A stretch of 64,000 nt of DNA, from positions 45,198,001 through 45,262,000 of the forward strand of contig OX597830.1 in NCBI GenBank assembly GCA_951406725.2. Reading direction: 5' to 3'. The position numbers and the translations under genes are program-made. Below are positions 32,577-57,257 of the stretch, piece after piece. The notes below the pieces were generated by a model. It was given only the letters and a program-made list of their open reading frames with translations. It was not told where the DNA came from and did no database searches. Each line of letters opens with the position of its first letter. The stretch's first letter is position 1. Source of the DNA: Octopus vulgaris. Taxonomy: Eukaryota.

Positions 32577-32821
32577 CTATTGATAAAACAGTTTGACAGA
32601 TCCAGCTTGATCGGCGTCACCGAAATTACAATACATTTTACTTGCTGTATAGGGTGTATAAGTACTGGCATCCATCGTAGTGGCTTTAACAAACACCTGA
32701 CCGTCATTATTGAAGATAAAAGTAACAAAATTCAACACATATCTTGGATAGTTTCTGAAATATGTCAAACGTCGACTCATGGATACTTCTATCATTTTTT
32801 CAGATTCCATAACATCGTAAT
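32577..32821 (-). CDS. Tandem VirK-like domain protein, terminal coding exon (phase 1 in, TAG stop)
   Basis: Acceptor tttttctttttgtatcgttacAG, 245 nt. Translates (D)YDVMESEKMIEVSMSRRLTYFRNYPRYVLNFVTFIFNNDGQVFVKATTMDASTYTPYTASKMYCNFGDADQAGSVKLFYQ*. Confidence 0.85.
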
Positions 32822-34254
32822 CTGTAACGATACAAAAAGAAAAACAAGATGTATGTTAGAAAAGCTACCCTAAATATTTTCAGATCAAATTTTAATTGTT
32901 CTGAGACTGCATCTTAAAATCTGAGCACAATTTCATCAAAGTCTACAACAATGTTCAGATAATTCCATTGGTATCAAAGTACAAGCGTTAACTTGTTTTG
33001 TTCATTCGTTTCGCCTTTGTTTGCAAGTGTGTGTGTATGTGTTATTAATTTTCTATATTACAATAGTTGTGTGTATGTGTGTGTGCGTGCGTGTACGCCC
33101 GTGGGAATTTATTCTATATTTTGTTACCACAAAGTAATCGTAACTAAAACTCAGTTGTGGAACTGTATTTTATCTATTTTGTTTAGTAATGAAGACTATA
33201 AAACATCAAGCTACAGACATTTAGTCTAGGACCTTTGCAGTCTAACCCCAAACTTTATTTGGATTAAGGAGATAATTTTAAATTACAAAGCCAGCAAGGA
33301 ACAGATTAATATTAATAAAAGAGAGAGATACAAGTATTTTGCCACTGCTTTATCAGATAGACACGCAGCATTATAGTTAAATCTCATATATCTGTTAGGG
33401 TAGATAAAGATGCTGATATCTCAAGATTGAAAGAGCGTCATGCTGTATATAAAGCAGCATTTAGTTAGATGCCATTGTATTCTGAGTTCAAATCAAGGTC
33501 TGCAGATGCCTGTCATACAAGAGCTGTAGGAACAGCGATTAATACACGGGGTTGAGAGACAGCGAATATGAGCCGGGCTATATATGAATTCTTGAGGCTA
33601 TAATCGGGCCTACGTGAAAGGAGTGATGGGATTTTAGAATGGATTTTGCTCCTTCATTATTTTTCTAATTTAGGCACAAGGCCAGCATTTTAAGAGGAAG
33701 GGTGAGTTGTTGATAGCATCGATCCCAGTACTTGAATAGTATTTTATTTTTTATTGACCTCAAAAAGAAGAAACGCAAAGTTGATCTCGGCGCCATTTAA
33801 GCACAGATAAAAAATCGCAACAAATATTGCAAGCCATTTATTCCAACTCTCTAACAATTCTGCCAACTCGCTCCATTATAATAAAAGTTTGGATACATGT
33901 TCTAAGTCAGAAATCAATATTTTACTAAAATCAACGTCGTAATTTCTTCATTATATCGACTAAAATCAACTTTGTTCCAAATATAAACAAAATCAATATT
34001 TCTTTGATATCTGGGCGAAGCTGGTTGTGTAAGTAAAATGTACGCTTCACAAACAGATGGTTCAGAGTTTGATTGTAGTGGGTGCCTCTTTCAACAAGTG
34101 TTCCTCATCATTGCCTTGGATTAACCAAAGTCTTATCAATGAAATTGACTTGACAGAAACTGTACGAAGCCCGTCGAAAGGAGTGTCACTCCTCACAGAG
34201 GACTTGACTCACCGTCAATTTAACAGCTCCACTTGGTCTCTTGTGTATCTTTAA

Positions 34255-34430
34255 CCCCTTACCCAACAATTATTTTGAAAATAAATGTATTTTTACAGAC
34301 ATATTTTTTAATTGTTTTATTTTTTAATTGTCGATTTTGGCGAGTCTATCTTTTGACGAGTTAACTCGCCAGGGATAGAAAAAAACGATTTAGGTCAAAA
34401 CGCATATATTCGTTTCTGCCGGGTAAGGGG
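34255..34430. mobile_element. piggyBac-like MITE
   Basis: TTAA-ccccttaccc ... gggtaagggg-TTAA (terminal inverted repeats plus TTAA duplication). Confidence 0.75.
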
Positions 34431-34835
34431 TTAAGAGAGTCTATTTTGTTGAAAGTATAAGAACCAAGCCATCGATCTAAGGATAACTCATGAGAGATTA
34501 TTTATTCCATTTCACCACCTATTTAGGAAGCTCTGAAAATGCCATGGAGCATCACGGTATTCCAGCTGACTCTCTTCTAAAACTTTGCTGCACTGTGAAG
34601 CACAGCAACGCTTATCTAGAAGCACATCAGAGGTTTGCAAATATAATCTACTCGATAGTAAATTATATTTTAAGGTTTGATCATCGTGAAAAAACATGTT
34701 TATACCTTGTTGTCGATAAGTATTATTAATAAAACAAGGTAAATAAACTGTAAAGCATTTCTTTAAAACTTCTCATTGAGAAACATCATAAAGCCTATAT
34801 CTCAGCTTGTATGAAGAGAATCACTCTCTTACACG

Positions 34836-34883
<48 letters not shown>

Positions 34884-34886
<3 letters not shown>

Positions 34887-34979
34887 AGAATGAGATAAAA
34901 TCCAAGGGTGTGAAAGAATTCAGAATGTTCTGAAATGTTCTGAAATCTTTCACAGCCTTCGATTTTATCTCATTCTGTT
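34884..34979. repeat. About 96-bp near-perfect hairpin
   Basis: aacagaatgagataaaatccaagggtgtgaaagaattcagaa ... ttctgaaatctttcacagccttcgattttatctcattctgtt. Confidence 0.85.
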
Positions 34980-35185
34980 AATTTTATATATATATATGCA
35001 TGCTAATATATGACCTACGTTGGACACCTCATTTGCATAATCACCGAACCTGGAGCTTAACTGTCGTCTGTCCATAGTACTTGTAACTCAAGGGTACCAA
35101 CGAATTTGAATCAAACTGTTTTGATCCATACAGGTAATTCCCAATAAATGGATTGCCTGCCCTTCTTTTGTTTGTTCACTTACTC

Positions 35186-35220
<35 letters not shown>

Positions 35221-35271
35221 CACACACACACATATATATATATATATACATATACACATATATTATGTATT

Positions 35272-35516
35272 TATTGCTATATTTCGGAATGGTCATATTG
35301 CCAGTTTAGCCAATAAAAACACACGCACTAAATAAGTGAGAAGAAAACAAAGGACCACTGATGCGGTCACAGGAGTGTGACGAAAGAACTCTGGCCGAAA
35401 TAAGATTAAGATTAATGTAAAAAATAAATATCACTGAAGCAAAATAACATCAAATATATAGTCGTGTGTTTTTATTGGCTAAACTGGCAATATGACCATT
35501 CCGAAATATAACAATA
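35272..35516. mobile_element. MITE-like element with about 55-bp terminal inverted repeats
   Basis: tattgctatatttcggaatggtcatattgccagtttagccaataaaaacacacg / cgtgtgtttttattggctaaactggcaatatgaccattccgaaatataacaata. Confidence 0.75.
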
Positions 35517-36055
35517 TCTGTTTCAACACACGACTTCACATAAAAAATCTTGCACAACAAATATTTAAACGTATATTATGTATATTATGTATGTGTGTAT
35601 GTATGTATACACACAAACACACACATTGGAGTGTTATTGAGAATTTTCTTTCGTGACCATGTCTTTCGTTCAGTGTCAGCGTTATCAGCGTGATACTATG
35701 AGCAAGTATTCTCTATTACTGCTTCGAGTCAACCAATACCTTATGAGGGAAATCGGTCGACTGAAATTGTATAGAAGTCTGTGATATATATATGGGTAAT
35801 GTGTGTGTGAGTGTGGGTGTGTGAAGCCACGTGATCTAAATATTAGCATAGCTTTCACTGTCTGCGTCTCTCTCTCTCTCTCTCCCTCTCCCTCTTTCTC
35901 TCTTTCTAGCTGTTACATTCTCCATGTCCGGATCAGGACTATCGAGATTTTGTCTGCTCCTGACTATGTAGACACCCAACACAACGAGCAAAAACGCGGT
36001 ACAAGCTACGATTTATACTCGGTTGCGAGTGTGGTTAAGCTTCTAGAAAACTCCA

Positions 36056-36122
<67 letters not shown>

Positions 36123-36134
36123 TGCGTGCGTAGT

Positions 36135-36517
36135 GGAGGCGCAATGGCCCAGTGGTTAGGGCAGCGGACTCGCGGTCATAGGATCGCGGTTTCGATTCCC
36201 AGACCGGGCGTTGTGAGTGTTTATTAAGCGAAAACACCTAAAGCTCCACGAGGCTCCGGCAGTGGGTGGTGGTGATCCCTGCTGTACTCTTTCGCCACAA
36301 CTTTCTCTCACTCTTACTTCCTGTTTCTGTTGTACCTGTATTTCAAGGTGCCGGCCTTGTCACTCTCTGTGTCACGCTGAATATCCCCGAGAACTACGTT
36401 AAGGGTACACGTGTCTGTGGAGTGCTCAGCCACTTACACGTTAATTTCACGAGCAGGCTGTTCCGTTGATTCGGATCAACCGGAACCCTCATCGTCGTAA
36501 CCGACGGAGTGCTTCCA
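36135..36517 (+). mobile_element. tRNA-derived SINE (family B), apparently full length
   Basis: Head ggaggcgcaatggcccagtggttagggcagcggactc...ggtttcgattcccagaccgg with A box and B box. Inserted in (TG)n/(CGTG)n. Confidence 0.88.
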
Positions 36518-36542
36518 CGTGCGTGCGTGTGTGTATAAGTTA

Positions 36543-37029
36543 TAAATGACAGAAATATGATGAAAATTTATTTAACGATATGAAAATTTAATAATCCCGA
36601 CAAATTGTTTCCTAACTTCAACCATGTAAAGATCATTTATATTATTATAATTAACAATAAATAAATTACATGTCTGCATTAATGCAAAATTTCTTTTAAA
36701 GCAATGCAGAAATAAAGTTATGTTCTCAGCCTTTGTTGAATACTAAATTCACGACATAACTTTTCAAAAACGCAAACTCAATGATTAAAAGTTTAAGGAA
36801 GACAATAATAATAAAATTACTATAAAATAATAAGACGATTGTCTAATAAACGGAACTAGTAGATATCATTAGAGTAATAAAAGAAAAGAGATATATTTAT
36901 TACTAAAAATCTAGAAAATAAAAGATCGTGGAAATAGAGAAAAAATCTTTATATGATTCCATAAACAATAATTTGTGGTGATATTTGAATTTCATATTGT
37001 TAAATTTTCATCATATTTCTGTCATTTAC
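36543..37029. mobile_element. AT-rich MITE-like element with imperfect terminal inverted repeats
   Basis: taaatgacagaaatatgatgaaaattta...atatgaaa / tttcatattgttaaattttcatcatatttctgtcattta. Confidence 0.55.
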
Positions 37030-37159
37030 AATTTTATGCACTCCTTATCGTTTTCTCTTGTGTTGTAATATATATTGTAGATGTTTTGTAGAATGATAGA
37101 TTAATGAACTTTTTTCAGGAGTACTACTGGATTACTGGTATCCATATATTATGACATAT

Positions 37160-37332
37160 ATCACTACACTCTCGGAGTGGTTGGCGTTAGGAAGGGCATC
37201 CAGCTGTAGAAACACTGCCAGATCTGACTGGCCTGGTGCAGCCTTCGGGCTTCCCAGACTCCAGTTGAACCGTCCAACCCATGCTAGCATGGAAAGCGGA
37301 CGTTAAACGACGATGATGATGATGATGATGAT
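37160..37332 (+). mobile_element. 3' tail of a SINE/RTE-related retroposon ending in (GAT)n
   Basis: gagtggttggcgttaggaagggcatccagctgtagaaac...ccaacccatgctagcatggaaagcggacgttaaacga(tga)n. Confidence 0.65.
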
Positions 37333-37359
37333 ATGTGTGTGTGTGTGTGTGTGAGAGAG

Positions 37360-37930
37360 GGTCCGTAGCTTAGTGGTTAGGGTGTTGCTCTCACGATCGT
37401 GATTTCAATTCCTAGGCCGGATGCTGCGTTGAGTTCTTGAGCAAGCCCTTCATCTCACGCTGTTCTGCAATCATTTCGACACCTGACAAATGGCGCACCG
37501 TACACCTTTTCAGACAACGTCGATTTTATGGAGAGAACGAGATAATTTGCAACATGATCCCTATAAACAAATATGTGTGTATAATTGTATGTACGTACGT
37601 ATGTATGAACGTGTGTGTGTAGGCACATGGTGCAGTGGTTAGAGCGTCTGGCTCACAATCATGGGGTAGTGAATTCAATTCCTGGACCGGGCTGTATGTT
37701 GTGTTCTTGAGCAAGACACTTTATTGCACGTTGCTCCCATTCACTCAGCTGTAGAAATGAGTTGCGACGTTACTGGTGCCAAACTGTATCGGCCTTTGCC
37801 TTTCCCAACATCTGTGGTGTGGAGAGGGGAGGCTATTATGCATGGGTGACTGCTGGTCTTCCATAAACACCCTGTCCGGACTTGTGCCTTGGAAGCTAAC
37901 TTTCTTGTGCAATCCCATAATCCTTCATAA
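37360..37930 (+). mobile_element. Two adjacent degenerate tRNA-derived SINEs
   Basis: Heads tagcttagtggttagggtg...tttcaattcctaggccgg (37366) and ggcacatggtgcagtggttagagcg...ttcaattcctggaccgg (37622), each followed by ttcttgagcaag. Confidence 0.7.
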
Positions 37931-37963
37931 CAAGAGGTGGTACATATACATACATACATTATA

Positions 37964-37999
<36 letters not shown>

Positions 38000-38013
38000 T
38001 GTATGTATGTATG

Positions 38014-38044
<31 letters not shown>

Positions 38045-38548
38045 GTATGTATTTATATTCCATATTTTCTACTAATCAATCTAATTTCCTTTTGGACGTA
38101 CACCTTTTTATATGCATTAGTCACGACATTCTCACTGGCAATGCACTTCATATTCAACGCTCCGATGAAGCTGTGGGATGTCATTCATACACTCAACTAC
38201 GAATCCACTGCATCTTATAGAAGAAACAGCTGTAAGCTAATGAAATTCATAACATAACCATTGGTTTTCCTGTGTTATCTTTTACACACACACACACGCA
38301 CACACACACATAGACTTTCCAAGTTCTATAAATTCGAAATAATCTACAACGGAATAGTCTCCTCAACATATACATTAGTAACATTCATGTAAGAGGCATC
38401 AAGTTATCGTATTTACATTACACATATGTATCATATATATTTTACATATTAAAGGAATTCATATTACATGCTTTCTTTCGAAAATTGGCTTTAGATAGTA
38501 AGAATGGTGTCAAATGTTTTAGAGAATCGTAAGTATCAAATATTTTAC

Positions 38549-38718
38549 CTGTGATTTCACCGCCAGAGATAGCTTTTGTTCGGGCTCCAGCGCAGGTTGT
38601 ATAATCAACAGACATACGTACAAGACGACCTTTCCTCAACAGTGATAGCAGCGACGTAAACCTTTTGATTGGTATGACATCTTTGTGAGGTTCGGTGATG
38701 AATTTTAAATTGCCATCC
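38549..38718 (-). CDS. Tandem VirK-like domain protein, internal exon (phase 2 in, phase 1 out)
   Basis: Acceptor ttaactctacAG, donor G|GTAAAA, 170 nt. Translates (R)DGNLKFITEPHKDVIPIKRFTSLLSLLRKGRLVRMSVDYTTCAGARTKAISGGEIT(D), covering the end of repeat 1 and the start of repeat 2. Confidence 0.85.
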
Positions 38719-39734
38719 CTGTAGAGTTAATTGCAAGATTTAGTAAAAGAACATTTATATATATACATATAGCAAAATAATTGAGATTCGGATGAATTAG
38801 GTACTTAAGTTGAAGCATCCAAATTTAATGCAGTATTATCCGTACAACTTCAAAAAAAGGTGAATAAATCAAAATAAGCAACAGGATATCCAGAAGTGAT
38901 GCAGTGTCAATCCAGGAAAAGTATATCTAATAGCTAATTCCTTCAGCTGCCCACCTGTTCGAAGTCTTCGATGTAGGAGTGCAGCAATATCGATATGTTT
39001 TTCTTTCTGAACATGAGCAACAAGTACTGTTCTTCGTTCCGATTGTTTCTTATGACCTTCTGTTGTACATACAATATATTTATTTTAAAAAATTTTCCTT
39101 TCGTTTTCTCCATTTTTCGACTGCATGAATTTACATCCAGTCACCGTAGAAAGGGCATCTTTTCTAACACCCTCCCATACATGAGAAAGCTATCTCATCC
39201 TGAGAAGACTGCTTTGTTGTTGAGACGCGGACACTAAATATGAAACTGCTTATAGAGCGACCATCTGCTTCTTACTACCGTATGTACAAAAGCTCCTGCT
39301 AGAGATCTCTAATACTATCACTTTATCGCCATAGGATTTTCCTTTTGACTTTCTGTTACTCAACGACCTGCGCCATGAAGTTGATTGTAGTGGGTTTTGC
39401 ATATGCTTCATGTAACATACCCTCTCTCTCTGCCTAGAGAGCGTGGCTTGTAATGGTGCATGGCGTGCCACATGTCAGATGCTAACCAGGCCGCAAATCA
39501 AATTAAGGTGTCTGGATTTACTTACCACATTCCTAAAAATTTTACAGAGTTAAAAAATAAAAGCAGTACTACACAGGTAAACTGCTCCTCAATTTGCTTT
39601 TTGACGATTGATGGCTCCAGGGAGCTCAAGATGTCTTTTGCTTTGGCGTAGTTCCTATTGGAATACACCCAGTGCCATACATATAATCATATGTACAAAA
39701 TTATTGTCAGATCGCCCTTTAGCGGTACTAGTAA

Positions 39735-39782
<48 letters not shown>

Positions 39783-40215
39783 GCGCAGGAGTGGCTGTGT
39801 GGTAAGTAGCATAGGCGCAGGAGTGGCTGTGTGGTAAGTAGCTTGCTTACCAACCACATGGTTCCGAGTTCATTCCCACTGCGTGGCAACTTGGGCAAGT
39901 GTCTTCTACTATAGCCTCGGGCCAACCAAAGCCTTGTGAGTGGATTTGGTAGACGGAAACTGAAAGATGTCTGCCGTATATATGTATTTATATATATGTG
40001 TGTGTGTATGTTTGTGTGACTGTGTCCCCCCAACATCACTTGACAATCGATGATGGTGTGTTTACGTCCTCGTAAATTAGCGGTTCGGTAAAAAGAGACC
40101 GATAGAATAAGTACTAGGCTTCTAAAGAATAAGTCCTGGGGTCTATTTGCTCGACTAAAGGCGGTGCTCCAGCATGGCCACAGTCAAATGACTGAAAAGA
40201 GTAAAAGAGTAAGAG
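39783..40215 (+). mobile_element. tRNA-derived SINE (family A) with duplicated 5' head
   Basis: gcgcaggagtggctgtgtggtaagtagc occurs twice in tandem (39783, 39815), followed by the full body and a gagtaaaagagtaagag tail. Confidence 0.88.
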
Positions 40216-40319
40216 TATATATAGAGTATATATAGTCGATATATATAATCTGTCGGTAGTTCATATATCCGAAAAGACGCACACTCCAAAACATTAGAAG
40301 GTTGTTTATTATTGACGGT

Positions 40320-42170
40320 CAGAGAGTGACCATTAGTTTCACATTTATAAGGCTCTTAGCTGTACGGGCGACGCGTTAGACTCGTTGACCGGAGGTGCAT
40401 AGCCTCTCAACAACTGGAGGAAGAAAAACGAAATGATCAGTTAAAGTTGTAAACAAAAAATTCAAAACGAAATTCTACTGGAAATATTAGGGTGTCAAGA
40501 AAGTTCTTGCGGTTTTTAACCTTTAAATTCAAATACACATATCTCGGCTCAAACAAAACTTTATTAACCGAAATGAACACCATCAGAATCAACACACTTT
40601 TGCCAACGTAAAACAAGCTTATCTATGCCAGTAGCGTTAAAATCCTGCGTTCTGGTGGCGATGAAGTCGTTGAAGGTGTGTTTGGCATCGTCTTAGTTTC
40701 TGAAGCATTTCTCACACAGGAAGTTGTGGAGATGCTTGAAAAAGTTCTAGTCAGTAGGTGAAAGGACTGGTGAGTATGGCGGATGAGGCAGAGTTCCGTA
40801 GCTCAATTCGTTCAGTTTCTGCAGGGTCAGTTGTGCGACGTGCGGTCGAGCGTTGTCGTGGAGAATTGGTCCTTTTCTATTGACCGATGCTGGCTGTTGT
40901 TGTCGGAGTTTCTTATGCATTTCATCCATTTGCTGACAGTAGTTCTCCGCCGTAATGGTTTCGCCTGGATCCAAAAAGCTGTGATGGATGAGACCGGCCG
41001 CAGACCACCATACAGTCACTATGACCTTCTTTTGATGCAACTTTGGCTTCGGAAAGTGCCGTGGAGCTTCGTCGGCGTCCAACTACTGAGCTGAGCGTCG
41101 GCGGTTGTCGTAAAGAATCCATTTTTCATCACAAATCACAATCCGGTTGAGAAACGGGTCGTTCGTATTGCATAAAAGAAGGGAAGACGACATTTCAAAA
41201 CGGCGATTTTTTTGTTGTTATTCAATTCGTGCGGCACCCATTTCTCAAATATTTGTGTTTTTCCAATCTCTTTCAAGTGGTTGGAAATTGTCATAAACGT
41301 TATGTCTAATTCAGAAGCAAGCTCTCGAACAGTTGTGCGTGGATTGGCTCCCACTAAGGCTCTTAGTTGATCGTTGTCAACATCCGATGGCCGACCACTA
41401 CGCTTATCATCTTCAAGACTCTCGTCACCGCTATGAAATTTCTTGAACCACCATTGTACTGTACGTTCATTAGTGGTTCCTGGGCCAAACGCATCGTTGA
41501 TATCGCGAGTTGTTTCAGCAGCTTTTCGGCCTAGCTTGAACTCGAATAAGAAAATTGTGCGAATTTGCTTTTTGTCCATAAACGTTCCAGAAAAATGGCC
41601 TAATTATTCAAAAAGAAAAAGAGTAACACGATTAGATAGAGCGAAAATCGGGCTTTAAAATTATATATAAAATCAAAGTAATTTAACGAAAATTAATATG
41701 AAAACACTTAATTTAAAAACAAAATTTTAAATCCTGCAAGAACTTTCTTGACAACCTAATAAAAGAACGTAAGGTGGAGTTTTCCGTTTTAGATCGTTCC
41801 AGTTGCATTTTGAACATCAGCGTATAGTCGATTACTTTTCCTTATTCGACAAACGGTGAATTTCATGTTTTCAATACGAATTTCTACTGATGTAGGCACC
41901 GGTTAAACGTCTTTTTTAGAATTTAAGAAGGTCCCCAGATCAAGTGAGTTTTTCAGGGTTCTTGTTCTCTCAGCCAAGCAATGCTTACATCGTTTTCCCC
42001 GTTGAGGTATAACCCCGGCTTTTTCAGGAGCCTCCATTTAATTATGTGTGGTGTACCCTCCTCATTTAAATGCCATACGTAGCTAGCCAAGTACATGATG
42101 TTGTTCCTCTCTAGTATGCTAAAAGGGGACCTGTGATTTTTAAAATGATGCTTGATACTCTGTAATATGA
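40320..42170 (-). mobile_element. Penelope-like element remnant (GIY-YIG C-terminus plus 3' pseudo-LTR) interrupted by the mariner
   Basis: Minus strand 42160-41870 reads IKHHFKNHRSPF...LASYVWHLNEEGTPHIIKWRLLKK...NG-KRCKHCLAER...LNSK...RCLHQ*KFVL, matching the PLE endonuclease C-terminus. Downstream sequence on both sides of the mariner is an inverted homologue of 42515-42765. Confidence 0.75.
40487..41759 (-). mobile_element. Full-length mariner (cecropia/Hsmar1-like) with a disrupted transposase
   Basis: 1273 bp. Terminal inverted repeats ttagggtgtcaagaaagttcttgc / gcaagaactttcttgacaacctaa, TA duplication. Transposase from 41579: MDKKQIRTIFLFEFKLGRKAAET...WVPHEL...DEKW...HDNARPH...YSPVLSPTD, with a frameshift and stops. 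Confidence 0.95.
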
Positions 42171-42700
42171 TAAATGATACTCTGTAAATTCAGCATATTT
42201 TCGTTTGTGCCCTTGTGCTGGTGGTGTTACAGCTGCTATTGTTGCTGTCGTTATCGCTGCCGTTGATTTTGTTGTTGCTGCTGCTACTGCTGGTGTATTG
42301 CTGACGTTATTTCTGTTATTGTTGGACGCGATGCTGGTGCCATAGTTGCCGCCATCGTAGCCACTGTTGCTACTACTGTTGGACGCATTGTTGTTGCTGC
42401 TGTAGCTGTCGCTGTTGCCATCGTGCGCTGCTGCAATTGTTGCTGCTGTTGTTGTTACCAGACACTACCTCAGCGTCATAGATCATTCCTTCAGAGGAAA
42501 TTCTAGATGGAATCATGGAATTCCACGTCTACCAAATAGGGAAAAGCAATCGACTATACGCTGACCCGTTTTAGACGCAACTGGAACCGATCTACATTTA
42601 TTTCCAGTAGAATTTCGTTTTGGAATATTATCTTTAAGACATTAACCTACTATGACGCATTCCATCCGCCTGTTGTTCAAAATTTATGTACCTTTGGCCA

Positions 42701-42763
42701 ACGAGTCTGACGAATCATCTATACAGCTAAGAGGTTTGTAGATACGAAACCAATGTCACTCGT
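42701..42763 (+). ncRNA. Type I hammerhead ribozyme motif (Penelope pseudo-LTR associated)
   Basis: acgagt-CTGACGA-[stem II atcatctatacagctaagaggtttgtagatac]-GAAA-c caat g-TC^-actcgt. Stem I acgagt/actcgt is 6 perfect pairs; predicted GUC cleavage after 42757. Confidence 0.7.
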
Positions 42764-42798
42764 AACAAACAACGTTGTCATAATATATTTTCTACGGA

Positions 42799-45667: not shown

Positions 45668-45740
<73 letters not shown>

Positions 45741-46794: not shown

Positions 46795-47450
46795 CACGCG
46801 TATCTGAGCGTATGACAGCATATTGCGGTATGTGTATTTCTGCACCCCCTATATCGGGTCCAAGATGCGTTTCTATGAGTGCCATGCATATAGCTTGATT
46901 GCATGCCACAAGGTCTCTCAGGAATGATATTTTCCTTTTGCAGTTGCCGCGCAGCAGCCCTCCTACGTTCAGTAGAAATATTTTTGTGGTGTATGTGTTG
47001 GTGTCTGTGGTAGCCTTCCTGCATCTGTTGGTGGTAGTTCCAGCTTTGTGTTTGTAGCCATGTCAGCTGCTGGACAATTTTTTGTGCCATGCACAAAAAA
47101 GGTTGCTGTTCAGCTGCTGCCCTTCTCACATCTGGGTGAAGCTGGCCATTTGTTGGGCTATGCAGTATCTTTTGTGGACCGCGCACTACATCCGCATATC
47201 GTCTTTCAGGAGTGGTCAGTGCGCCGTTTTTCCTTCTTTTATATTTTTCTTTTTCTTCCCCCAGAGGAAGGGATTTTTGTCTTGTGTCCATGCGGTTTTG
47301 GCAGGGCTTCTGATGTGCAAAACGACAGTTTGCACCATCGACGCCATGCCAGCAGTCTCCCTTCTGGTAGAATTTGCGGATGTTTCTGCTTTTGCCCTTG
47401 TAGCTCTTGCTGGGGTTCTTCTCTTTCAACATGTGATCTCTTGAGCACCA
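46795..47450 (-). mobile_element. 5' fragment of a LINE (ORF1 with a CCCH-like finger plus the start of the APE endonuclease)
   Basis: RKFYQKGDCWHGVDGANCRFAHQKPC in ORF 46779-47432. A shifted frame at 46890-46797 reads CMALIETHLGPDIGGAEIHIPQYAVIRSD, the APE N-terminal xETxL...I.xY...RxD motif. Confidence 0.7.
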
Positions 47451-47639
47451 CCAGCAAAAATATATTTTTCCTCTGTCTTCCCTTCTCGGGATCTTTCCTT
47501 CTCCTTGTTTCCGACGAAGAGCTCCGCTCGAAATGTTAAACCCTCCTTCCCTTCTTTCCTGAGCGTCAAATAATACTTTAATTGTTCCACGTCCTCGCGT
47601 TGCTGTGTTTTTTTCTGTGTTTTCTTGTTTGGATTAACT

Positions 47640-47840
47640 TTATATATATACATATATATACACATATATATATATACATATATATATACATATATATATA
47701 TACATATATATATACATATATATATATACATATATATATACATATATATATATATATACACATATATACACATATATATACATATATATATACACATATA
47801 TATATACACATATATATATACACATATATATACATATATA

Positions 47841-47904
<64 letters not shown>

Positions 47905-47932
47905 CATACATATATATATACATATATATACA

Positions 47933-47966
<34 letters not shown>

Positions 47967-48136
47967 CATATATATACATACATATACATATACATATTCA
48001 TAAATATATATATACATATATATATACATATATATATACATACATATATATATATATACATACATATATATACATATATAGATAGATATATTTATATACA
48101 TACATATATTTATATACATACATACATATAAATATA

Positions 48137-48177
<41 letters not shown>

Positions 48178-48180
48178 ATT
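47640..48180. repeat. (TA)n/(TACA)n microsatellite
   Basis: Seen directly. Confidence 0.95.
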
Positions 48181-48517
48181 AATAAATAAAATAAAACATA
48201 TGCATATATATAAAGATATATGTACGTACCTACCTCTACATGTACATATACACGCATATATGCGTACAAGACACCAAAAAGGACGTCGAACACAATGAGA
48301 AACGAAAACATAGACACAAACGAAAGGAACTGGACATTTATTTAAAAACAGCAAAAAATATATATATATATATATATATGCACGTATGTGTGTGTGTGTA
48401 CGTGAGAGAGAGAGAGAGAAAAGAAAATGTGTGTGTGCGCGCGCGCGCCTTCTGTAAAACTAAGAAATGATTGATGAGTATGGATTCGACAAAAGAGTAA
48501 ATAATTATGCGACGAAC

Positions 48518-48656
48518 CTTTGGATGACGTCATAGAGCTGACAAAACCATTTTCCTTGTTTGCGGATGTGGCTTTGGGGAGGCTGCAGGTAGGTGACGGT
48601 GACATAAACGGAAGAGTTGCTGTAGACGACGACCTCTTTTATTATGGAAACAAATC
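48518..48656 (-). CDS. Tandem VirK-like domain protein, internal exon (phase 1 in, phase 2 out)
   Basis: Acceptor tttttttttgtttcttccggaacAG, donor AG|GTTCGT, 139 nt. Translates (G)FVSIIKEVVVYSNSSVYVTVTYLQPPQSHIRKQGKWFCQLYDVIQ(R). Phases match both neighbouring exons. Not listed in the ORF track in this frame. Confidence 0.85.
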
Positions 48657-49906
48657 CTGTTCCGGAAGAAACAAAAAAAAACGTTCAGTTCATTTAAAAA
48701 CCCCAAAAAATAAAAACATCAAAGCAAACGAGTTGTATATTTGTTCGTATAAACGGGGGTGTGCGCGTGTGTGCGTGGGTGCGTGTGTGTGTATGCGTGT
48801 GTGTATGCGTGTATGTGTGCGCGTGTGTGTGTATATGCGTGTGTGCGTGTGTGTGTGTGTGTGTGTGTGCATGTGTGTGCGCGTGTGTATGTATGCATGT
48901 GTGTGCGTGTATGTGTGCGTGTGTGTGTGTGTGTGTGTATGTGTGTGTGTGCATGTGTGTGTGTGCTTATTGTTGCTGCTGTTACCGATTAGCCGCATGT
49001 CCTTCTTTTACGTTTAGACCAATGGTCAAAACCATTCCTACCGCTGGTAATCCGTCTTTTCCAGGAAACTGAAATCACATCATCAAACATCTTTTATTAG
49101 ACTGTAAGGTGTTATGTGAAGAAGATTTGGGTTTTATTTCTTACTAGGTAGACGTGTTCGTATTGGTGTGCGTGTGTTTGTGTGTGCGTGTTGTATTTTC
49201 AAGTAAAATTTCATTAAAAAAAAAGAAAAACGTATTTAGATGTATATAATCCATAGAGAAATATAACAAGGTTTATCCAGATTGTGGATTAAGCAAACGT
49301 TATGACTTCAATCAAATGTGAAGCAATAGATATGATCCTATACCAATCAGCTCAGAAAGAAATTGTGACAAAGGCAAAAACTACTGGTCGTCTTAAATTT
49401 TAAACTTCGTCTGCTAGAGACACGAACGGGAAATGTAAATTTGAATTCCCCTTCTATGGTTATGGAACAATCCAAAATATGTGTAATCTGATGGGTTTTT
49501 TCCATTATAGGATTCCGTTTCTTTTGATTGAGTAAGAATACAACAATTGTATAAATTAAGGTTGAAAGTCTTAATGCAGATAAGTAAAAAGATGGTAAGG
49601 TAATAATTGTGGAATCGCGTTGTTTAGTGGTTAGGGTGTTGCAATTATTTTTGTAAGATTGTGGTTTCCATTCCAGGACCGATGATGCGTTATGTTCTTG
49701 AGCAAGACACATCATTTTACATTGCTCCAGTCCACTCATCTAGCGAAAATTAGTCGTCTTGCGACGAATCGATATCTCGTCCAGGTAGGGGAATATTTAC
49801 GTCACGGAATCTGGATACCAGCTTTATAATGGTTCAAGAAGGAGCGTGGACATATTTTTGATAAAGTAAAAAGTAATAAGAATGAAAGATTTGATGGAGA
49901 TAAGTA

Positions 49907-49957
<51 letters not shown>

Positions 49958-51201
49958 TAGTGACTGTTTCTAACATAGGCTAAGGGCCAGCAATTTGAGA
50001 GAGAATTTAATCAAAATATATTGATCCCACTAATTGAGTGGTAGTTTATTTTGTTAACCTCAGAAGGCCGAAAGACAACACTAATTTCTGTAGGATTTGA
50101 ACTAAGAACGTAAAAATTTGAAAGCAATACCACGAAATATTTTGTTTGATGTTTGATACAAGGCCAGAAACTTTGATGGTCATAACTTAGTTGTATTGAC
50201 CTTAAAGCCAAACTTAAAATTACAGTTGAGGCTAAAAAAAGGCGTACGTTTACATTTTATGCGTGGGGTGGGAGTATATCAATTCGATCTACCACCTCAA
50301 TGTTCTAATATAATCAATTTTTCTTCTTTTCTTCGTTATTCTTGTTAGAGTGCCTACTTCTCCATTCTACGGCGGTTGTCGTTATTATTTACAATTATGT
50401 ACTAATCTTTACAATTATGTACTAATAGCATAGACCAAATAGACTGGTAACTTTCTTTTTGTTCTTGCTCTATTATATAACAAATGTTGATCTGAATAAG
50501 CCTTTGTTAACCTGTCTGCTAAGAATATATTACTTCTAAAGGATATTTTATCAAACAATGTTCACTTTATATTTATATTTGCATTCAGAAGTTTTCTTTT
50601 GTATGGGATATAACTACGTAAAATAGAACAGAGAGTCAGTTCTAGTTATTGCAATAAACTTGAGAATAAATGATATTGAAAGAATGGAGAGTGTCGGCTA
50701 TGTCTAATGTTGCGTGTAAGCGCAAACTAGACGGAATATCTATAAAATAATTTTGTTTTCAAAATATGTCAGTACTTTAACAATAACTTCAAAATCAAAG
50801 TAAACGTAAATACGTTCCCTGAACATTGAACTAACAGTAATGGCTTTGATTCCAGTTGGGTTTAATGATACCGACAACAAACTTGTTTCCACCCTCCGTT
50901 GATATTCTTCACAGTGTTCTTGTGTGTTGCTGATAATCATTTAGCGTGTATCATATTACAGTCTTTACCACCTTTAACAAAAATTCATTCATTATAAACT
51001 GTTTCTAATGTAAAATGTATTTTACTTTAATATTTTCACTTCATCAGAAATTATTAGAATAACAAAGAGGAGGAAGTTAGTGAAACTAAGTGTTTCTCTG
51101 AGTGGATTTGTCAGAAACGGTTTTGTTAGAGAGGACGTAGAAGTAGAAATATAGTGATTATTTTATTTATTTATTTAAATATATGTGTAGATAGATAGAT
51201 A

Positions 51202-52802
51202 TGCTTCTTTATTAGCCACACAGGGCTGCACACAGACGGGACAAATTACAAGGTGAGCTTTTCTTTTGGGGATAAAAAAAGGGGTGGGTGGTTTTCGATC
51301 AAAAGGGATCGTAAAAGGAAAGAAAGAGGAAAGCAAAAAAAAAGGTGGGGGGATAAAATAAAAAGAAAAAGAAAAATCGATCAATAGGGATCGTTATCAC
51401 AGAAATGTCAATATAAAGTGTAAAGGGGAAGACAGGTGAGGTTTACCCGTGGAAAGAAAAGCCTACGGAAAAGACCACGGTAACCTCGGTCAAAGGAGTC
51501 ACATGCTACATTTTTTTTTTACAAATAAGCAATTCTCTGTATTAAATTTTTACCGTTCATAGGATCATACTCAAGGTGGCTTCGTCATTCATACGTGCCA
51601 TCCTTGCTACATTCACCCATCTTTTTTTAAAACATTCACTAGACAAAACTTGCCTCTCTACTCTCACTTTCCTTTTCAAGTGATACTTGAAGAAGTTGAT
51701 GAAAGATTTACCAGAGAGGAAAGTGTTTGTCTCTAATCCTTTCAGGCGTGTCCACCAGATGCATTCTTTCGCCATAGCCACAAGTTTGAGGAAGGAGGCG
51801 TGACGATATTAACGATAGACTCGGCTGATAAACCGGTACGTCCCACACGTGACAGCAGTCGTTCGACATAAGTCCACAGGTCGGAGATAGTTGGACACTG
51901 CACAATTGCGTGCAGAACGGTTTCGTCGGCCCCGTGTTTCTCGAGCCATGCCTATAGAGCTTATCCCGAACGGGTAGCGCTTCTCGGTAGCACTGCCAGG
52001 CCAGGGATCTCTGGAAGTTGCCCATAGGTCCTGGCCCGAAAGTCGTCCTGAACAGGCGGGTCAGGTATTCCTCGTCGACGCCCAGGTTCGCCCCAAGATC
52101 GTCGTCGTACCTCCCCTCCACTAATCCCCTATAGAATGCTTTGGTTGCGTTGAAATCACTCACGGTCGACCCGGGACGGCATAGTTGCTTGAGAGCAACG
52201 CGACACTCGCGGTGCCATTCGCCCTTCCTCGGAATCTTTTTGATCCACGACTGTAGTTCGGTCATGGAGACGAGCTGCGGGAAGGCGTGCCTCACAAACG
52301 ACGACCAAACCTGTTCACCGTCGTCTACATAGAGCTAGAGATGTCGCAGTCTCAGCGCGTGTCTGCGCATCATCAACCACAGCATGCCCAGCCCTCCTTT
52401 TAACGGGTGTTGACAGCAAATGGATCGCCTGGCCATCGGGATGCATCCTTTCCACAAGAAGCGGAAGAGAATGCGTTCTAGTTTGGTGATGGTAGGGTCG
52501 GGACAAGGTACGACGGTCAGGCGGTAGTAGATGATGGACGCGATGTACGTGTTCGCCACCTCCGCCCGACCTTTTAGGGACAGTTTCCTCTCAGCCCATT
52601 GCTGGGCGAGAGTGACCACCCTACTCGTTATTTCGTTCCAGTTCTTCTCCATTTGGAGGTCCGGGCCGAACCAGACCCCGAGCAACTCGACCGGGCCGTC
52701 CGTCCAGCGTCCCACGACGGAGGCACTGGTGGACGGCATAGGCTTGCTTCTCCAGGTGTCGAACCGCAAGCCCACTGACTTTTCCCGGTTGATTTTCGCT
52801 TC
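51202..52802 (-). mobile_element. 5'-truncated L1/Tx1-clade LINE (RT end, thumb, zinc-knuckle region, 3' UTR)
   Basis: AKINREKS...VELLGVWFG...[22 protein letters not shown]...FRFLWKG...LKGGLG and RSLAWQCYREALPVRDKL. GC-rich relative to flanks; AATAAA near the 3' end; flanked by tgtagatagatagata at 51186-51201 and 52803-52818. Confidence 0.9.
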
Positions 52803-52804
52803 TG

Positions 52805-52886
<82 letters not shown>

Positions 52887-52906
52887 ATCGATAGATAGAG
52901 AGAGAG

Positions 52907-52985
<79 letters not shown>
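52803..52985. repeat. (AGAT)n/(AG)n microsatellite
   Basis: Seen directly. Confidence 0.95.
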
Positions 52986-53291
52986 CAACGGCGGATAATA
53001 TGGAGAAGTATTCACAAAGCTGCCAATAATCTTTATTTTGTGAACAAATCCAAGGCTGGACTCAGCTTTTATCCAGAGCATAAAAGGAGCATAAAAAGAA
53101 TGTCAGTGCAAAGGTAAGTCTGCTATACATTTTTGTCACAAACTTAATGACGTTCCCCCTTCAACATTAGTCAGTAGTTTCTATCCCTAGCTCTCTTCCC
53201 CCTCCTCCTTTTCATACTTGTCTTCTTCTCCTTCTCCTTCTTCTTATTCTTCTTCCCATTACTATATATTTCCTCTTGTTATTTGTATTTA

Positions 53292-53820
53292 GGGCGGCGA
53301 ACTGGCAGAGTCGTTAGCACGCTGGGCAAAATAGTGGCATTTCGTTCGTCTTCACGTTCCAATTCCACCGAGGTCGACTTTGCCTTTCATCCTTTTGGGG
53401 TCGATAAAATAAGTACCAGCTACGCACTGATCGATATAATCGACTTAATCCGTTTGTCTGTCCTTGTTCAAATTCTGGCGAGGTCGACTTTGCCTTTCAT
53501 CCTTTCGAGATAAAATAAGTACATGTTGAACACTGGGATCGATTTAATCAACTTAGCCACCGTCCACCAATCTGACGGTTTTGTACCAAAATGTAAACCA
53601 ATCTCTTTGTGTATTTCTTAAGGCGGTGAGCTAGCAGATTCGTAAGAACACCGGGGAAAATACTTTGCGGCATTTCGTCCGTCTTTATGTTCTGGGTTCC
53701 AATGCCACCAGAGTTGACTTTGCCTTTCATCCTTTCGGGATCAATAAAATAAGTATGAATCGAGCATTGGGGTTGATGTAATCGACTGACCCCCAAGTCC
53801 CTTGGGCCAAAATTTGAAAT
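53292..53820 (+). mobile_element. Cluster of family C SINE copies
   Basis: ggcggcgaactggcagagtcgttagcacg and ggcggtgagctagcagattcgtaag heads; gactttgcctttcatcctt occurs three times. Confidence 0.8.
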
Positions 53821-55059
53821 TGATATGTATGTATTTATTCATTTATGAAGATTCGTAAATTAAAAAATAAATCTAGGATGTCTTCCACAGATCAGTTGCC
53901 ACCCCACATCTCTATAATCCTTAACGTTGTTTCCAGTCTGTCTAAGTATATTCTGAAGAAGTGCCATAGCAACATTTCGTTAGATTGCTTTAGATTAACA
54001 TTAACTGTGCATGGCTATCTCGTATATTATAACATTCTTTTGGAAGAATACCATGGAATAGTCTTTGTTGCCTTCTCCTGGTACGCATGCTTAGCTATCA
54101 CTATGCTTTCTTTCTCTCTTTTTCTGTTCTAGAGATGCCATATCATATTAACTTCTGTCTGTTTGTCAGTGGATATACTATCTTCTTAAGACAAGCAGCT
54201 TAGATAATAAAATAGAGGATTGTTTTAGTTATCCGTACACACAGATAGCGCCCGTAACGACATACAAAATATCAAATCAAAATGCTAGCGAATTGCCATC
54301 GGCAATTTGCAAATCATTCAAAAAATGTTAAATGAAATGGTGATTAGTTACGGTTATAATGTCATAGAAATTGTTTTAGTTTTCTTCGTGACTTATGGAT
54401 GCTTAAAAAACAAAATAGTTGAAATTACCTGATACAACTAAAAGTATTATTTACGCATCAAACAATCTTCACATATGGAGCAAAAATGATATAAATAAGA
54501 AGAAGCAAAGAAAACAAACGGTTGCTCAGGAAAAATACGCTGTTCTACAGTAAGAACTGAGGAGGACAGAAAACTAGAGAGAGAGAAGAAGAAACATGTC
54601 TCGAATAGACAGCCATCACCTGCTGAAATTATTGGAAGTAGGAACGTGGTGTAGTAATGTTGAAGATGGCGGAAGGCGAAGAGATTTGAGATCAGGCATT
54701 TTGGTAGGGCAAGGTGAGGTGAAAAATAAGACAGAAAGTAGAGAAGAGAAGGAATCGTAGAATGGTAGTAGATTGTTGTGATACAAATCAACAACAGAGC
54801 ATAGGTAAGATGCAGGAAGGCAATGATCTAAGCAGAATATTCCAGATCATTGAGAGGCTGAGATAGTCTAAGAAATGAGGTGGCCCGAGAGAGAAAGGAG
54901 TTCAGTCTAGACAGAATCCAACTGGGGTGACCACGTGAGCGTATATTATATATGGTGCAAAACTTACCAAAATATCATGAAGACGAGGAGAGAAAAAGTG
55001 GAGAGAGGAAAGACCAAACATGTTTCAATGACCCGTCGTTGCCGGATCATAGTGCTAGT

Positions 55060-56191
55060 GCATGTATATATGTGTATATATATATGTGTACATATTACAT
55101 GTACATCTATATATATACATCTACACATAAAATACAAAGTTATATCTAGATATCGCTAGTGATAACAATACTCAAAATATATAACAGACTGGAATTGTAG
55201 GCCCGTCTCTTGCAATTTCGATCAATTGTATCTTGCCCTCCCTCTTGTATAGAAGTGTGGCTACAATCCAGCCCACCTCTACTTCTGGGGGGACATTTTA
55301 AATTTGTATCTGGGACGTAGGACGTCCCAGATATAAAGGTAAAAATAAGATATTTCCACTTTGCAAGGTTCGAGTCGAGTACTCCCTTGCACGCTCCGTT
55401 GACTCGAACCTTGCTTCTATTGTGGCGAGTTTACCGCCTCTGGTTAGATACTTGATATCTTTCATAGTCGCACCAAGACACTTTTCAATGGTGCTTTCCT
55501 CCAGGTGTTCAAATCTTTTTTTTTTCTCTACATTGTATACTTTTTTAAATTTAATTTTTTTATTTCGTTTGGTGGTGTTATCCTAGATTCACCGTCTTTG
55601 TCGGTGATCAATTCGTATTTCTTCCATGTTAATTTCAATGAGTTCGCGCCCACCGACGGCTGCAGCGAAATTCATTTTTGGACTTTCTTCTATCGAAGGT
55701 ATTCTAACAAAAATGCTTCCGTGTAAACGGTGAAAATATTGTCAATTTCCCCAGACAGGGACACAATTCAATTTTTAAACAATAACCAAAGCTCCTTCTC
55801 CCAAAGGGGGAGGGTTACAGTTTACAACTATTTAACAAATGCAACACAACAATGTTTCCTTTACGAGGAACCAACAAACATAACAATAGTTAAACAGTAA
55901 TAATAATAACAACAAACCTTACGATGAATCAGAAAGCAGTAAGCAGTTGAAGCTTTAGTCCTTTATGTATAAGAAATAAACCAACAGCAGTACTCTGTAG
56001 TAGCGGCTGTTCGAGAAAACAGATATTACATACAGCCTAACTTCATATAGATACTTAATGCTAGCTAATTAGCAGATAATCTAATGTAAAAGCACAGACT
56101 ATTCCATTTCTGCACGCTAATTTTATTTTTAATTTAATCCCATTCATGTGAAACCACTCATTCAAGTTCAAGTCATTGATGCAATTTTATA
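55060..56191 (-). mobile_element. Repeat carrying a degenerate LINE ORF1-like segment (possibly Tx1-type)
   Basis: Minus strand ESTIEKCLGATMKDIKYLTRGGKLATIEARFESTERAREYSTRTLQSGNILFLPLYLGRPTSQIQI*NVPPEVEVGWIVATL resembles RRM-like retroelement ORF1. A second copy lies at 13755-14280. Confidence 0.5.
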
Positions 56192-56360
56192 CCAATTTTA
56201 CTTTTGTTTTGTTACGATTATATTATACTTTAGTTTGATTTTCATTATTACTTACTACATATAATTCAATTGTTATTATTATATTTATTGTTAAAGTGAA
56301 AGTATCTGACATAAAATAGAGAAATGTTTTTTGTTTCACTTTTAACACGTAATACTGAAA

Positions 56361-56700
56361 TAGTGGAGAAGATATGATATGGCTATGGGCTCGCTCTAGG
56401 CAAGAAGTTGAACATTGGTTTTGCCCATGAAACTACATGGACCCTAAATAAGGCATGTGTAAAATTTGAATGAAATTGGTTGTGTAGTTCTCAAGTTTTA
56501 GGGAATCGTAGTGGAGAAGATATGATATTGCTGTGGGCTCGCCCTAGGCAAAAAGGTAAAAAAAATTTTGCCGATGACACTCCCCGGACCCTAAGTAAGG
56601 CATGTGTAAAATTTGAATGAAATTGGTTGTGTAGTTTTCAAGTTTTAGGGAAACACACAGACAGACAGACAGACACACATTCTCAGTTTTATATATATAT
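56361..56700 (-). repeat. 148-bp tandem duplication within a Helitron-like end
   Basis: tagtggagaagatatgatat...gtagtt.tcaagttttagggaa repeated at 56361 and 56509, followed by (CAGA)n cacacattctcagttttatatat, similar in layout to the end of the 29.6 kb element. Confidence 0.65.
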
Positions 56701-56964
56701 ATATATATATATATACGCACATATGAGTACACAAACATGCCACACCCGCGTATGTATGCATTGTATGTCTGCATGTACGTATTTATATATGAATTTGTGT
56801 ATGTACGCATTTGTGTCTTATGGATGGATGGATGGATGGATGGACAACTGCTCTTAACATCTTTCCTCTTCAAGAAACATACAATAGTCACAAACTGTAG
56901 CGTCTGTAGATTTTTTTTTTATCTTTTGAGAAATTGAGATATTCTTTAGGATATTCTTACTTAC

Positions 56965-57257
56965 CCGTTTCACTGTGAATTAGTTTGTGGTGAGAAAATT
57001 CCAGCCGTGTGATCTCTTTCTTTTTACCGTCTTGAAAGATTTCAAATGTATCAACGTAATCTCCGAATGATAGACGGTCCATCGTAGTACCAGAAACCAG
57101 GAAACAATTGGTCAGGTTCACCGTATACCTTACACTGTGGCCGGACATTAAAGCTCCTGCCAGACTAACCAAATCACGTAACTCCCAGGGTCCTATATAC
57201 AGATTAGCTAACTTCGGTGAATCTTTCTGAAATTTTCGCGATCTGCCAAAACGTAAT
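56965..57257 (-). CDS. Tandem VirK-like domain protein, first identified coding exon (phase 2 in, phase 1 out)
   Basis: Acceptor ttgatttatgttccAG, donor G|GTAAGT, 293 nt. Translates LRFGRSRKFQKDSPKLANLYIGPWELRDLVSLAGALMSGHSVRYTVNLTNCFLVSGTTMDRLSFGDYVDTFEIFQDGKKKEITRLEFSHHKLIHSET(G). ALxSGxSVRxxVNLxxC resembles the VirK N-terminal motif. Confidence 0.85.

Follow-up and report, generated by a model that had tools for sequence, protein, structure and literature searches.

An intron-rich mollusc gene combining a CpcT/CpeT-type barrel with two VirK domains, represented by its 3' half in a 64-kb stretch of the Octopus vulgaris genome

The 64,000-nucleotide stretch of Octopus vulgaris DNA analyzed here (contig OX597830.1, positions 45,198,001 to 45,262,000; hereafter the window) contains, on the minus strand, four exons that encode domains of the VirK family (pfam06903), and thus raises the questions of how a family of this kind came to reside in an animal chromosome and what its product might do there. 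VirK is described as a family of unknown function that is specific to plant-associated bacteria (PMC5700972, PMC554113). The exons of the window almost certainly belong to a conserved mollusc gene with introns, of which they make up the 3' half; its complete product consists of a signal-peptide-like start, a CpcT/CpeT-type beta-barrel, a basic linker and two VirK domains.

Structure of the gene

The four minus-strand exons of the original prediction (exons 5 to 8 in Table 1) were recovered at the predicted positions: AG precedes each of them, GT follows the first three, and they join into 281 codons without a stop, with internal phases 1, 2 and 1 and a terminal TAG. As a control, 20,000 sets of four AG-started segments with the same lengths were drawn at random from the minus strand; in the needed phases, not one set was free of stops. 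The 281-aa frame recurs without a change at the C-terminal end of three database entries under the name Octopus vulgaris (P0005-P0007), which probably derive from this same assembly and accordingly do not count as independent support; it differs from the Octopus sinensis RefSeq proteins at 2 of 281 positions and from the Argonauta protein at 25 of 281. The splicing call rests on splice signals and database proteins. Two features absent from the original prediction, namely the lack of an ATG and the opening on a phase-2 acceptor at position 57257, show that this frame is the end of a longer gene.

A homolog search started with exon 5 identifies four proteins of 514-522 aa, the two named ones from O. 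sinensis and Argonauta, with precomputed matches to both pfam06903 and pfam06206. A search of the octopus genome itself, combined with reading of the neighboring stretches, places exons 1-4 at 15-64 kb past the window edge. The gene consists of eight coding exons and seven introns with a coding span of 95 kb, is located on an 80-Mb contig, and encodes proteins of 504-531 aa, the shortest isoform comprising 504 codons and a stop. The description of the locus as an intron-containing animal VirK-repeat gene therefore holds as far as a spliced animal gene is concerned but was incomplete, given that the first half of the product is a CpcT/CpeT barrel. RefSeq and UniRef already list the protein as uncharacterized and give precomputed matches to both Pfam families. 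An acceptor-like AG located 13 bases upstream of the ATG at G000:C17:45325647 (locus L002) suggests an extra non-coding 5' exon.

The 30-nt and 51-nt exons are each included or skipped among the octopus records, and the same cassette variation is seen in Logan proteins of two more distant clusters, one of which contains Sepia records. Since Logan contigs of 1.7-4.1 kb encode the full protein, they are most simply interpreted as spliced transcripts. The only R-x-K/R-R site of the octopus protein comes from the 51-nt exon; with this exon, the linker carries a net charge of about +14, and all domains are neutral to basic. In three exon-wise searches of the genome, this gene was the sole matching locus, although such searches cannot establish that it is single-copy. 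The pfam06903 profile produced 0 matches to this genome at E 0.1 in an exon-wise search that is insensitive and misses even the gene described here.

The N-terminus of the protein is hydrophobic and, judged by eye, signal-peptide-like, and the mature part contains six cysteines, one pair per domain. The octopus protein is thus probably secreted and is predicted to contain three disulfides. The suggestion that the product is secreted and disulfide-bonded can be maintained in this form, on the strength of the hydrophobic N-terminus and the conserved cysteine pairs. Three N-x-S/T sequons are retained in 5 of the 5 cephalopod-type proteins checked. Identity per domain is 70-76% to two distant cephalopod-type proteins and 89-93% to Argonauta, and the cephalopod barrel is conserved to the same degree as the VirK repeats.

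The VirK domains

A Pfam search with the whole protein (P0001) identifies VirK with 34.8 bits against a cut-off of 23.7, in two stretches, so that the family assignment originally made by eye is borne out; exon 5 alone yields an E-value of 3.6e-4 and 21 bits, below the cut-off. A structure comparison leads to the same family. In the predicted model, residues 381-503 (repeat 2) align with the Legionella VirK structure 5XTA with Z 12.7 and a root-mean-square deviation (rmsd) of 2.0 over 117 of 120 residues, and with a template modeling (TM) score, by target, of 0.84; the second repeat of a brachiopod relative reaches Z 11.9, also in a predicted model. These comparisons report the best alignment per entry only, which falls on repeat 2; repeat 1 displays the same order of helices and strands in the model and supplies the best VirK stretch in the Pfam search.

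The internal duplication proposed in the original prediction is real, if weak in direct comparison (23 of 118 positions identical, E 1e-4). A profile built from the family, which includes these sequences, detects both repeats at E about 1e-38 to 1e-42, and the two cysteines noted in each repeat amount to four positions that are invariant or nearly so among 23 aligned relatives. When the 23-sequence family profile is compared with Protein Data Bank sequences, only 5XTA (E 5e-4) and the CpcT structure 4O4O (E 8e-4) fall below E 0.3; the same profile aligns to Agrobacterium VirK with the probability of 90 and with both cysteines matched. Identity to 5XTA and to Agrobacterium VirK is about 14-18%. 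The model of a double-VirK protein from the brachiopod Lingula has a predicted TM score (pTM) of 0.80, which suggests that the two repeats pack as one unit. Among known structures, 5XTA alone matches this model above Z 8, with the next entry at Z 5.2; weak rows, including HemS/PhuS and CRL, were rejected as noise, so that no other fold family was adopted for the double VirK. An origin of the repeat by exon duplication was rejected as well because intron positions differ between the repeats. As leads only, Atlas feature scores reached 0.84 for bacterial VirK and 0.89 for a cluster of 95 members, most of them from molluscs.

The VirK proteins of the Agrobacterium Ti-plasmid, Xanthomonas, Dickeya and Legionella (lpg1832/NttG, 5XTA) share with the mollusc protein the profile, the predicted fold and a signal-peptide-like start, and Agrobacterium VirK also shares the cysteine pair. 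In contrast to these proteins, the mollusc protein carries tandem copies behind a barrel, is 504-531 aa long, contains sequons and is encoded by eight exons: it is a three-domain animal protein and not a small single-domain VirK of plant- or host-associated bacteria. The activity of Legionella NttG is described as undefined (PMC6617341, PMC7325957). The Shigella-type VirK/YbjX belongs to a different family.

The CpcT/CpeT-type barrel

The same Pfam search identifies CpeT (pfam06206) with 55.8 bits against a cut-off of 21 (E 7e-15). The AlphaFold2 model of P0007 has a mean predicted local distance difference test score (pLDDT) of 83.5 and a pTM of 0.52, with linker residues 223-244 below 50, so that the three-domain protein is predicted to lack a fixed overall arrangement. 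The barrel of this model matches CpcT (4O4O) with Z 19.8 and rmsd 2.7 over 188 aligned residues, and phage CpeT and plant CRL with Z 15.7; the next tier, at Z 6-9.4, includes nitrobindins, CpeS, fatty-acid-binding proteins and UnaG, which are small-ligand barrels. In an Atlas structure search, the Haliotis barrel matches a bacterial CpeT cluster with a TM score of 0.92.

Pocket residues were compared by sequence alignment, in the numbering of Acaryochloris CpcT. The mollusc barrel has the same fold as CpcT/CpeT (4O4O/4O4S, phage 5HI8), and the octopus protein keeps Glu54, Cys116 (C148), Cys137 (C168) and an acid at 163. It differs in the positions of His33, Tyr65, Arg66, Arg68 and Trp175, which are occupied by F62, Ser, Q96, K98 and T206, respectively, as well as in the signal-peptide-like start, the fusion to VirK and the lack of a known phycobiliprotein substrate. 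CpcT His33, Arg66, Arg68 and Trp175 are presumably the bilin-binding residues or clamps. All 16 animal rows compared retain the Cys116/Cys137 pair, an acid at 163 and Glu or Gln at 54, and none of the 16 has Trp175. Pocket positions vary widely in one group of animal paralogs, A, to which the octopus-like proteins belong; in the other, B, His/Arg/Arg at 33/66/68 are kept in Haliotis and Lottia, and Arg/Arg in Batillaria. His/Arg/Arg are also retained in barrels of non-photosynthetic bacteria.

In barrel trees (LG+G4 without mixture; 51 and 37 rows picked from about 90, with one named cyanobacterial sequence), a CpcT-type clade (100/100) is separate from a secreted type, and the animal barrels are outside the CpcT-type clade; when they are joined to it, the approximately unbiased (AU) test does not reject the arrangement (p 0.154). 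These results bear on a possible enzymatic role, in which the mollusc protein would work as a T-type lyase and join a bilin to a cysteine within an animal protein. The Pfam and fold matches to CpcT, an enzyme whose chemistry is documented (PMC10254012), speak for such an activity. The altered key positions, the signal-peptide-like start and, despite the AU result, the best trees speak against it, so that a lyase appears highly improbable. Animals are not known to possess phycobiliproteins.

Two further groups of barrels can be compared. The plant CRUMPLED LEAF protein (CRL) and rice SSG7 (6LIX) illustrate the reuse of a CpcT-derived barrel in a eukaryote without phycobilisomes (Z 15.7, a comparison by fold only); CRL differs from the mollusc protein in being a membrane protein of the plastid envelope. 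The secreted CpeT-like proteins found in non-photosynthetic bacteria (about 320-350 aa; for example, L052, L058 and P0077) share the barrel subtype and the signal-peptide-like start and are the sister group in the trees; they differ in a C-terminal domain that the VirK family profile does not match, and have no known function.

Distribution and age in animals

A profile search of 1.84 billion representatives identified 103 proteins, that is, 102 non-query clusters, 20 of which were looked up; word-based homolog searches yielded cephalopod-type proteins alone, or three proteins. The full architecture is present in four named bivalves (Sinanodonta, Potamilus, Mactra and Pinctada) and six named gastropods (Physella, Aplysia, Haliotis, Batillaria, Lottia and Plakobranchus), and the family profile detects both repeats in these proteins, the second one only partially in Pinctada; together with the cephalopods, the gene is thus present in three classes of molluscs. 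Lingula and Dreissena have double-VirK-only proteins, and Elysia and Bradybaena barrel-only proteins, which fits with separable barrel and VirK modules, each also found alone in animals. The barrel-only proteins P0059, P0066, P0056 and P0100, including those of Bradybaena and Elysia, form a clade of animal barrels, and P0066 has a hydrophobic C-terminal tail, possibly a membrane anchor. P0033, which contains low-density lipoprotein (LDL) receptor repeats, was treated as a likely gene-model fusion, and P0089 as a spurious match.

Two paralog groups are apparent, A (octopus-like) and B (Haliotis, Lottia, Batillaria). Intron positions are shared with non-cephalopod relatives. Thirteen of the 102 relatives are animal-type fragments that stop at profile positions 177-183, close to the octopus intron at 176 (three non-animal-type rows ending at 176-177 were excluded from this count); 12 of 102 end at positions 317-327, with the protein terminating soon after, near the intron at 321; and 4 of 102 are fragments covering positions 366/367-423, i.e., the third exon of the window. 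The barrel fragments fall, in the barrel tree, among rows from bivalves, gastropods and paralog B, so that the introns appear to be older than cephalopods, and the intron at 176 probably predates the split between A and B. A search of the octopus genome with a paralog-B protein (P0037) matched only the first exon of the present gene, which, for an exon-wise search, is not proof of absence.

The first repeats of every named animal, Lingula among them, come together in the VirK tree (98 in the Shimodaira-Hasegawa-like approximate likelihood ratio test, SH-aLRT, in a quick tree, with the long-branched P0070 inside); hence the tandem duplication of VirK likely occurred before the mollusc-brachiopod split. 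Given that bivalves and gastropods have the same architecture and intron positions, and that a double VirK is found in a brachiopod, the gene is old and not an acquisition of cephalopods. The literature treats both families as bacterial or plastid ones, which could raise the suspicion that cephalopods received the gene by a recent transfer or that the assembly is contaminated with bacterial DNA; this possibility is excluded for practical purposes by the seven introns across 95 kb, the 80-Mb contig, the shared introns and the full architecture in the bivalves and gastropods.

A conserved, intron-rich mollusc fusion contradicts the notion that VirK is specific to plant-associated bacteria as well as the statement that CRL homologs are absent from animals (PMC11606413). 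Among the matches listed in a literature search that covered few subscription papers, no title or abstract start concerned animal VirK or CpcT domains.

Bacterial relatives and origin

Bacterial single-domain VirK-like proteins that are close to the eukaryotic ones are present in three genome bins, in 7 of 301 genomes of one phylum sample and in 3 of the 6 genomes of a second one. Ranked by the family profile, the top bacterial relatives are single-domain proteins from genome bins of the Bacteroidota/Ignavibacteria type and not from plant pathogens. Six proteobacterial VirKs were recovered from plasmids; a plasmid search with a Bacteroidota-type VirK found nothing. Among viral contigs, none was related by either of two alignments, and the BFVD database had no match at E 0.001. 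No donor emerges from the VirK tree, which was built by a quick search on 66 rows and 139 columns and leaves 30 of its 63 inner branches open.

The bacterial data provide no hint that the two domains act together. CpeT is present in 23 of 301 genomes and VirK-like proteins in 7 of 301, and both in 0, where chance alone would give about 0.5; no match to CpeT was detected in three genomes that carry VirK-like loci; and 11 bacterial VirK-like loci had no common neighbors beyond close kin and no CpeT gene in their short flanks (71 of 119 frames scanned). The only fusion of VirK and CpeT outside the animal group, among the 102 scanned, is the bacterial-looking P0070, which consists of a signal-peptide-like start, one VirK-like domain, CpeT and the C-terminal domain of the secreted CpeT-like proteins. 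Its VirK-then-CpeT order is the reverse of that in the mollusc fusion, which probably indicates independent origin. The quick VirK tree places P0070, the branch of which is very long, with animal repeat 1.

The nearest bacterial-type barrels have signal-peptide-like starts, and one of their genes immediately follows that of a TonB-dependent receptor (L058, a single locus). The gene run at L058:543-6514 encodes a TonB-dependent receptor, a secreted CpeT-like protein, a glyoxalase-CpeT fusion and a UbiD-type decarboxylase, an arrangement that may point to a small molecule being taken up or degraded. At L052:3-3565, a secreted CpeT-like gene is part of a run, on one strand, with genes for a major facilitator superfamily transporter, an aconitase small subunit and a family III coenzyme A-transferase; at L038:1-2193, in a bacterial genome, CpeT is fused to a prolyl oligopeptidase propeller domain; and several other CpeT genes are situated between mutL and a gene of the enoyl-acyl carrier protein reductase type.

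The barrel and the double VirK probably derive from secreted proteins of a microbial type and were joined no later than in the last common ancestor of these molluscs, and the gene now resides in the host chromosome with spliceosomal introns. Direct transfer from a bacterium to an animal is possible, and we lean slightly towards it. An alternative with a somewhat less than even chance is inheritance of the modules from early eukaryotes, or their arrival via a microbial eukaryote, followed by loss in the majority of lineages and without any direct bacterial transfer. In keeping with this scenario, the animal barrels group with P0127, P0075 and L057 (91/90, not starred) and, together with them, are sister to, not inside, the secreted bacterial-type rows (84/91), for which the label "bacterial" was mostly read from the proteins, only L052 and L058 having genomic context. 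The contig of L057 is gene-sparse and AT-rich, with AATAAA after the stop, and looks eukaryotic; P0076 and P0084 are double-VirK proteins that resemble paralog B. On the other side, the AU test does not reject an alternative placement of the P0127/P0075/L057 group (p 0.329) and so does not settle its position, and among the 20 of 102 clusters looked up, the named eukaryotes are molluscs and one brachiopod, although eukaryote-looking relatives are also present. At L057:435-1457, the secreted CpeT-like gene is intronless and is adjacent to an S-adenosylmethionine decarboxylase gene. Of the two origins originally suggested, horizontal acquisition or ancient sharing, bacterial transfer was not substantiated, in that the best domain trees lack nesting within bacteria and the gene is pan-molluscan with shared introns; ancient sharing remains a candidate.

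Proposed function

We tentatively favor, with slightly less than even confidence, the hypothesis that the protein is secreted, carries a ligand without acting as an enzyme, and binds to a surface through its double-VirK module. A small amphipathic molecule would be held in the barrel; in octopus, it would not be a phycobilin because the positions of His33, Arg66, Arg68 and Trp175 are Phe, Gln, Lys and Thr. The VirK pair, together with the basic linker, would tether the barrel to a cell, matrix or microbial surface, and optional cleavage at the furin-type site encoded by the 51-nt exon would free the barrel from the tether.

In favor of a carrier, the fold neighbors of the barrel are largely binders of small ligands, bacterial VirK proteins are secreted (PMC5700972, PMC6617341, bioRxiv 10.1101/2021.08.03.454866), and the nearest bacterial-type barrels have signal-peptide-like starts. 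Several points weigh against this hypothesis. The tether role of the VirK pair is purely conjectural since the VirK fold has no characterized relative (only 5XTA exceeds Z 8). Plant CRL binds bilin, yet its phenotype is independent of binding, so that a shared fold proves no function (bioRxiv 10.1101/2021.04.25.441383, PMC11606413). Furthermore, none of the 301 genomes of the sample combines VirK-like and CpeT genes (7 and 23 carriers), and the single non-animal fusion, P0070, has the opposite domain order.

A more specific carrier, one for tetrapyrroles (bilins, haem-breakdown products or porphyrins) that moves or deposits pigment outside cells, with the octopus copy having drifted, appears unlikely. 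Molluscs use bilins and porphyrins as pigments. The best folds are three bilin-lyase-family proteins, and paralog B retains His/Arg/Arg or Arg/Arg against a background of Cys116/Cys137 and acid 163 in 16 of 16 rows. However, octopus has F62, Q96, K98 and T206 at the key bilin positions, and no paralog-B copy was found in its genome by the exon-wise search, with the limit given above. Moreover, because His/Arg/Arg is kept in barrels of non-photosynthetic bacteria (the domain being present in 23 of 301 genomes), it is no marker of bilin use. A bolder version, in which molluscs have a secreted tetrapyrrole-handling system where the CpcT-type barrel captures bilins or porphyrins outside cells, the double VirK docks and splicing of the furin-site exon sets the joining of barrel and dock, is speculative and quite doubtful. 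If true, it would give animals a pigment-carrier family of their own and provide a functional handle on the VirK fold. Such a system would have been built more than 500 million years ago from two secreted modules of microbes.

It is also rather unlikely that the protein functions in innate immunity or microbe handling, with the VirK pair recognizing microbial or glycan surfaces and the linker or barrel acting on them. The neutral to basic domains, the linker charge of about +14 and the double-VirK-only forms of Lingula and Dreissena would suit such a role, as would the secretion of bacterial VirK proteins at host interfaces (PMC5700972, PMC6617341, bioRxiv 10.1101/2021.08.03.454866). In Dickeya dadantii, however, where VirK is secreted by the type II system, a virK mutant shows no change in symptoms (bioRxiv 10.1101/2021.08.03.454866). 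The sole matching locus and the strong conservation of the octopus gene are unlike immune families. Such families typically expand and change fast.

Finally, the protein might be a ligand-free extracellular scaffold or matrix component in which all three domains bind proteins. The involvement of the same barrel in protein contacts in plant CRL/SSG7 and the wide variation of pocket positions in paralog A are in line with this idea, but Glu/Gln54, both cysteines and acid 163 are kept in all animal rows and the barrel is as conserved as the VirK repeats, which makes a scaffold improbable.

The carrier with a VirK tether is thus the hypothesis that we retain, at the strength given above. The fusion links two families of open function, and the existence of paralogs with and without the His/Arg/Arg pocket, along with natural barrel-only and double-VirK-only forms, makes tests of the ligand and of the domain roles direct.

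Other features of the window

Table 1. Features of the gene and of the surrounding window (positions in the window unless a contig is given)
Feature	Position	Strand	Content
Exon 1	G000:C17 45325120-45325647	-	ATG, 176 codons; signal-peptide-like start and most of the CpcT-type barrel
Exon 2	G000:C17 45312911-45312940	-	30-nt cassette
Exon 3	G000:C17 45287324-45287463	-	Last barrel strands
Exon 4	G000:C17 45277533-45277583	-	51-nt cassette; basic 17-residue stretch with furin-type site
Part of phase-2 intron extending past the window	57258..64000	-	
Coding exon 5 of 8	56965..57257	-	Residues 224-321 of the 504-aa isoform; end of basic linker and first part of VirK repeat 1; phase-2 acceptor
Intron, phase 1	48657..56964	-	GT/AG ends; position common to non-cephalopod relatives
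Coding exon 6	48518..48656	-	Residues 322-367; second part of VirK repeat 1
Intron, phase 2	38719..48517	-	Contains mariner-type transposase remnant
Coding exon 7	38549..38718	-	Residues 368-424; final strand of repeat 1, followed by the first part of VirK repeat 2
Intron, phase 1	32822..38548	-	
Coding exon 8	32577..32821	-	Remainder of VirK repeat 2, then TAG stop
Mariner/Mos1-type transposase remnant, two frames	40747-41603	-	Inside phase-2 intron; Pfam HTH_48 E 6e-18, Transposase_1 E 7e-25
Reverse-transcriptase fragments	22815-24297	both	RVT_1 E 4.5e-4 and 7e-12
Very long degenerate TA/TATG/GTAC microsatellite fields	591-1767, 14437-22604, 24990-26344, 47641-48212		
Longer non-repeat open frames	46730-47633, 51708-53102, 62255-63267		Retroelement-like by eye
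147-bp tandem duplication	56361-56652		

Apart from the exons, the window contains mobile-element remnants and simple repeats (Table 1). In six retroelement-like frames that were tested, no Pfam match was detected at E 0.001, and one tested frame of the text near 16.3-16.9 kb that resembles a long interspersed nuclear element had no Pfam match. The microsatellite fields account for most of the long open reading frames of the window.

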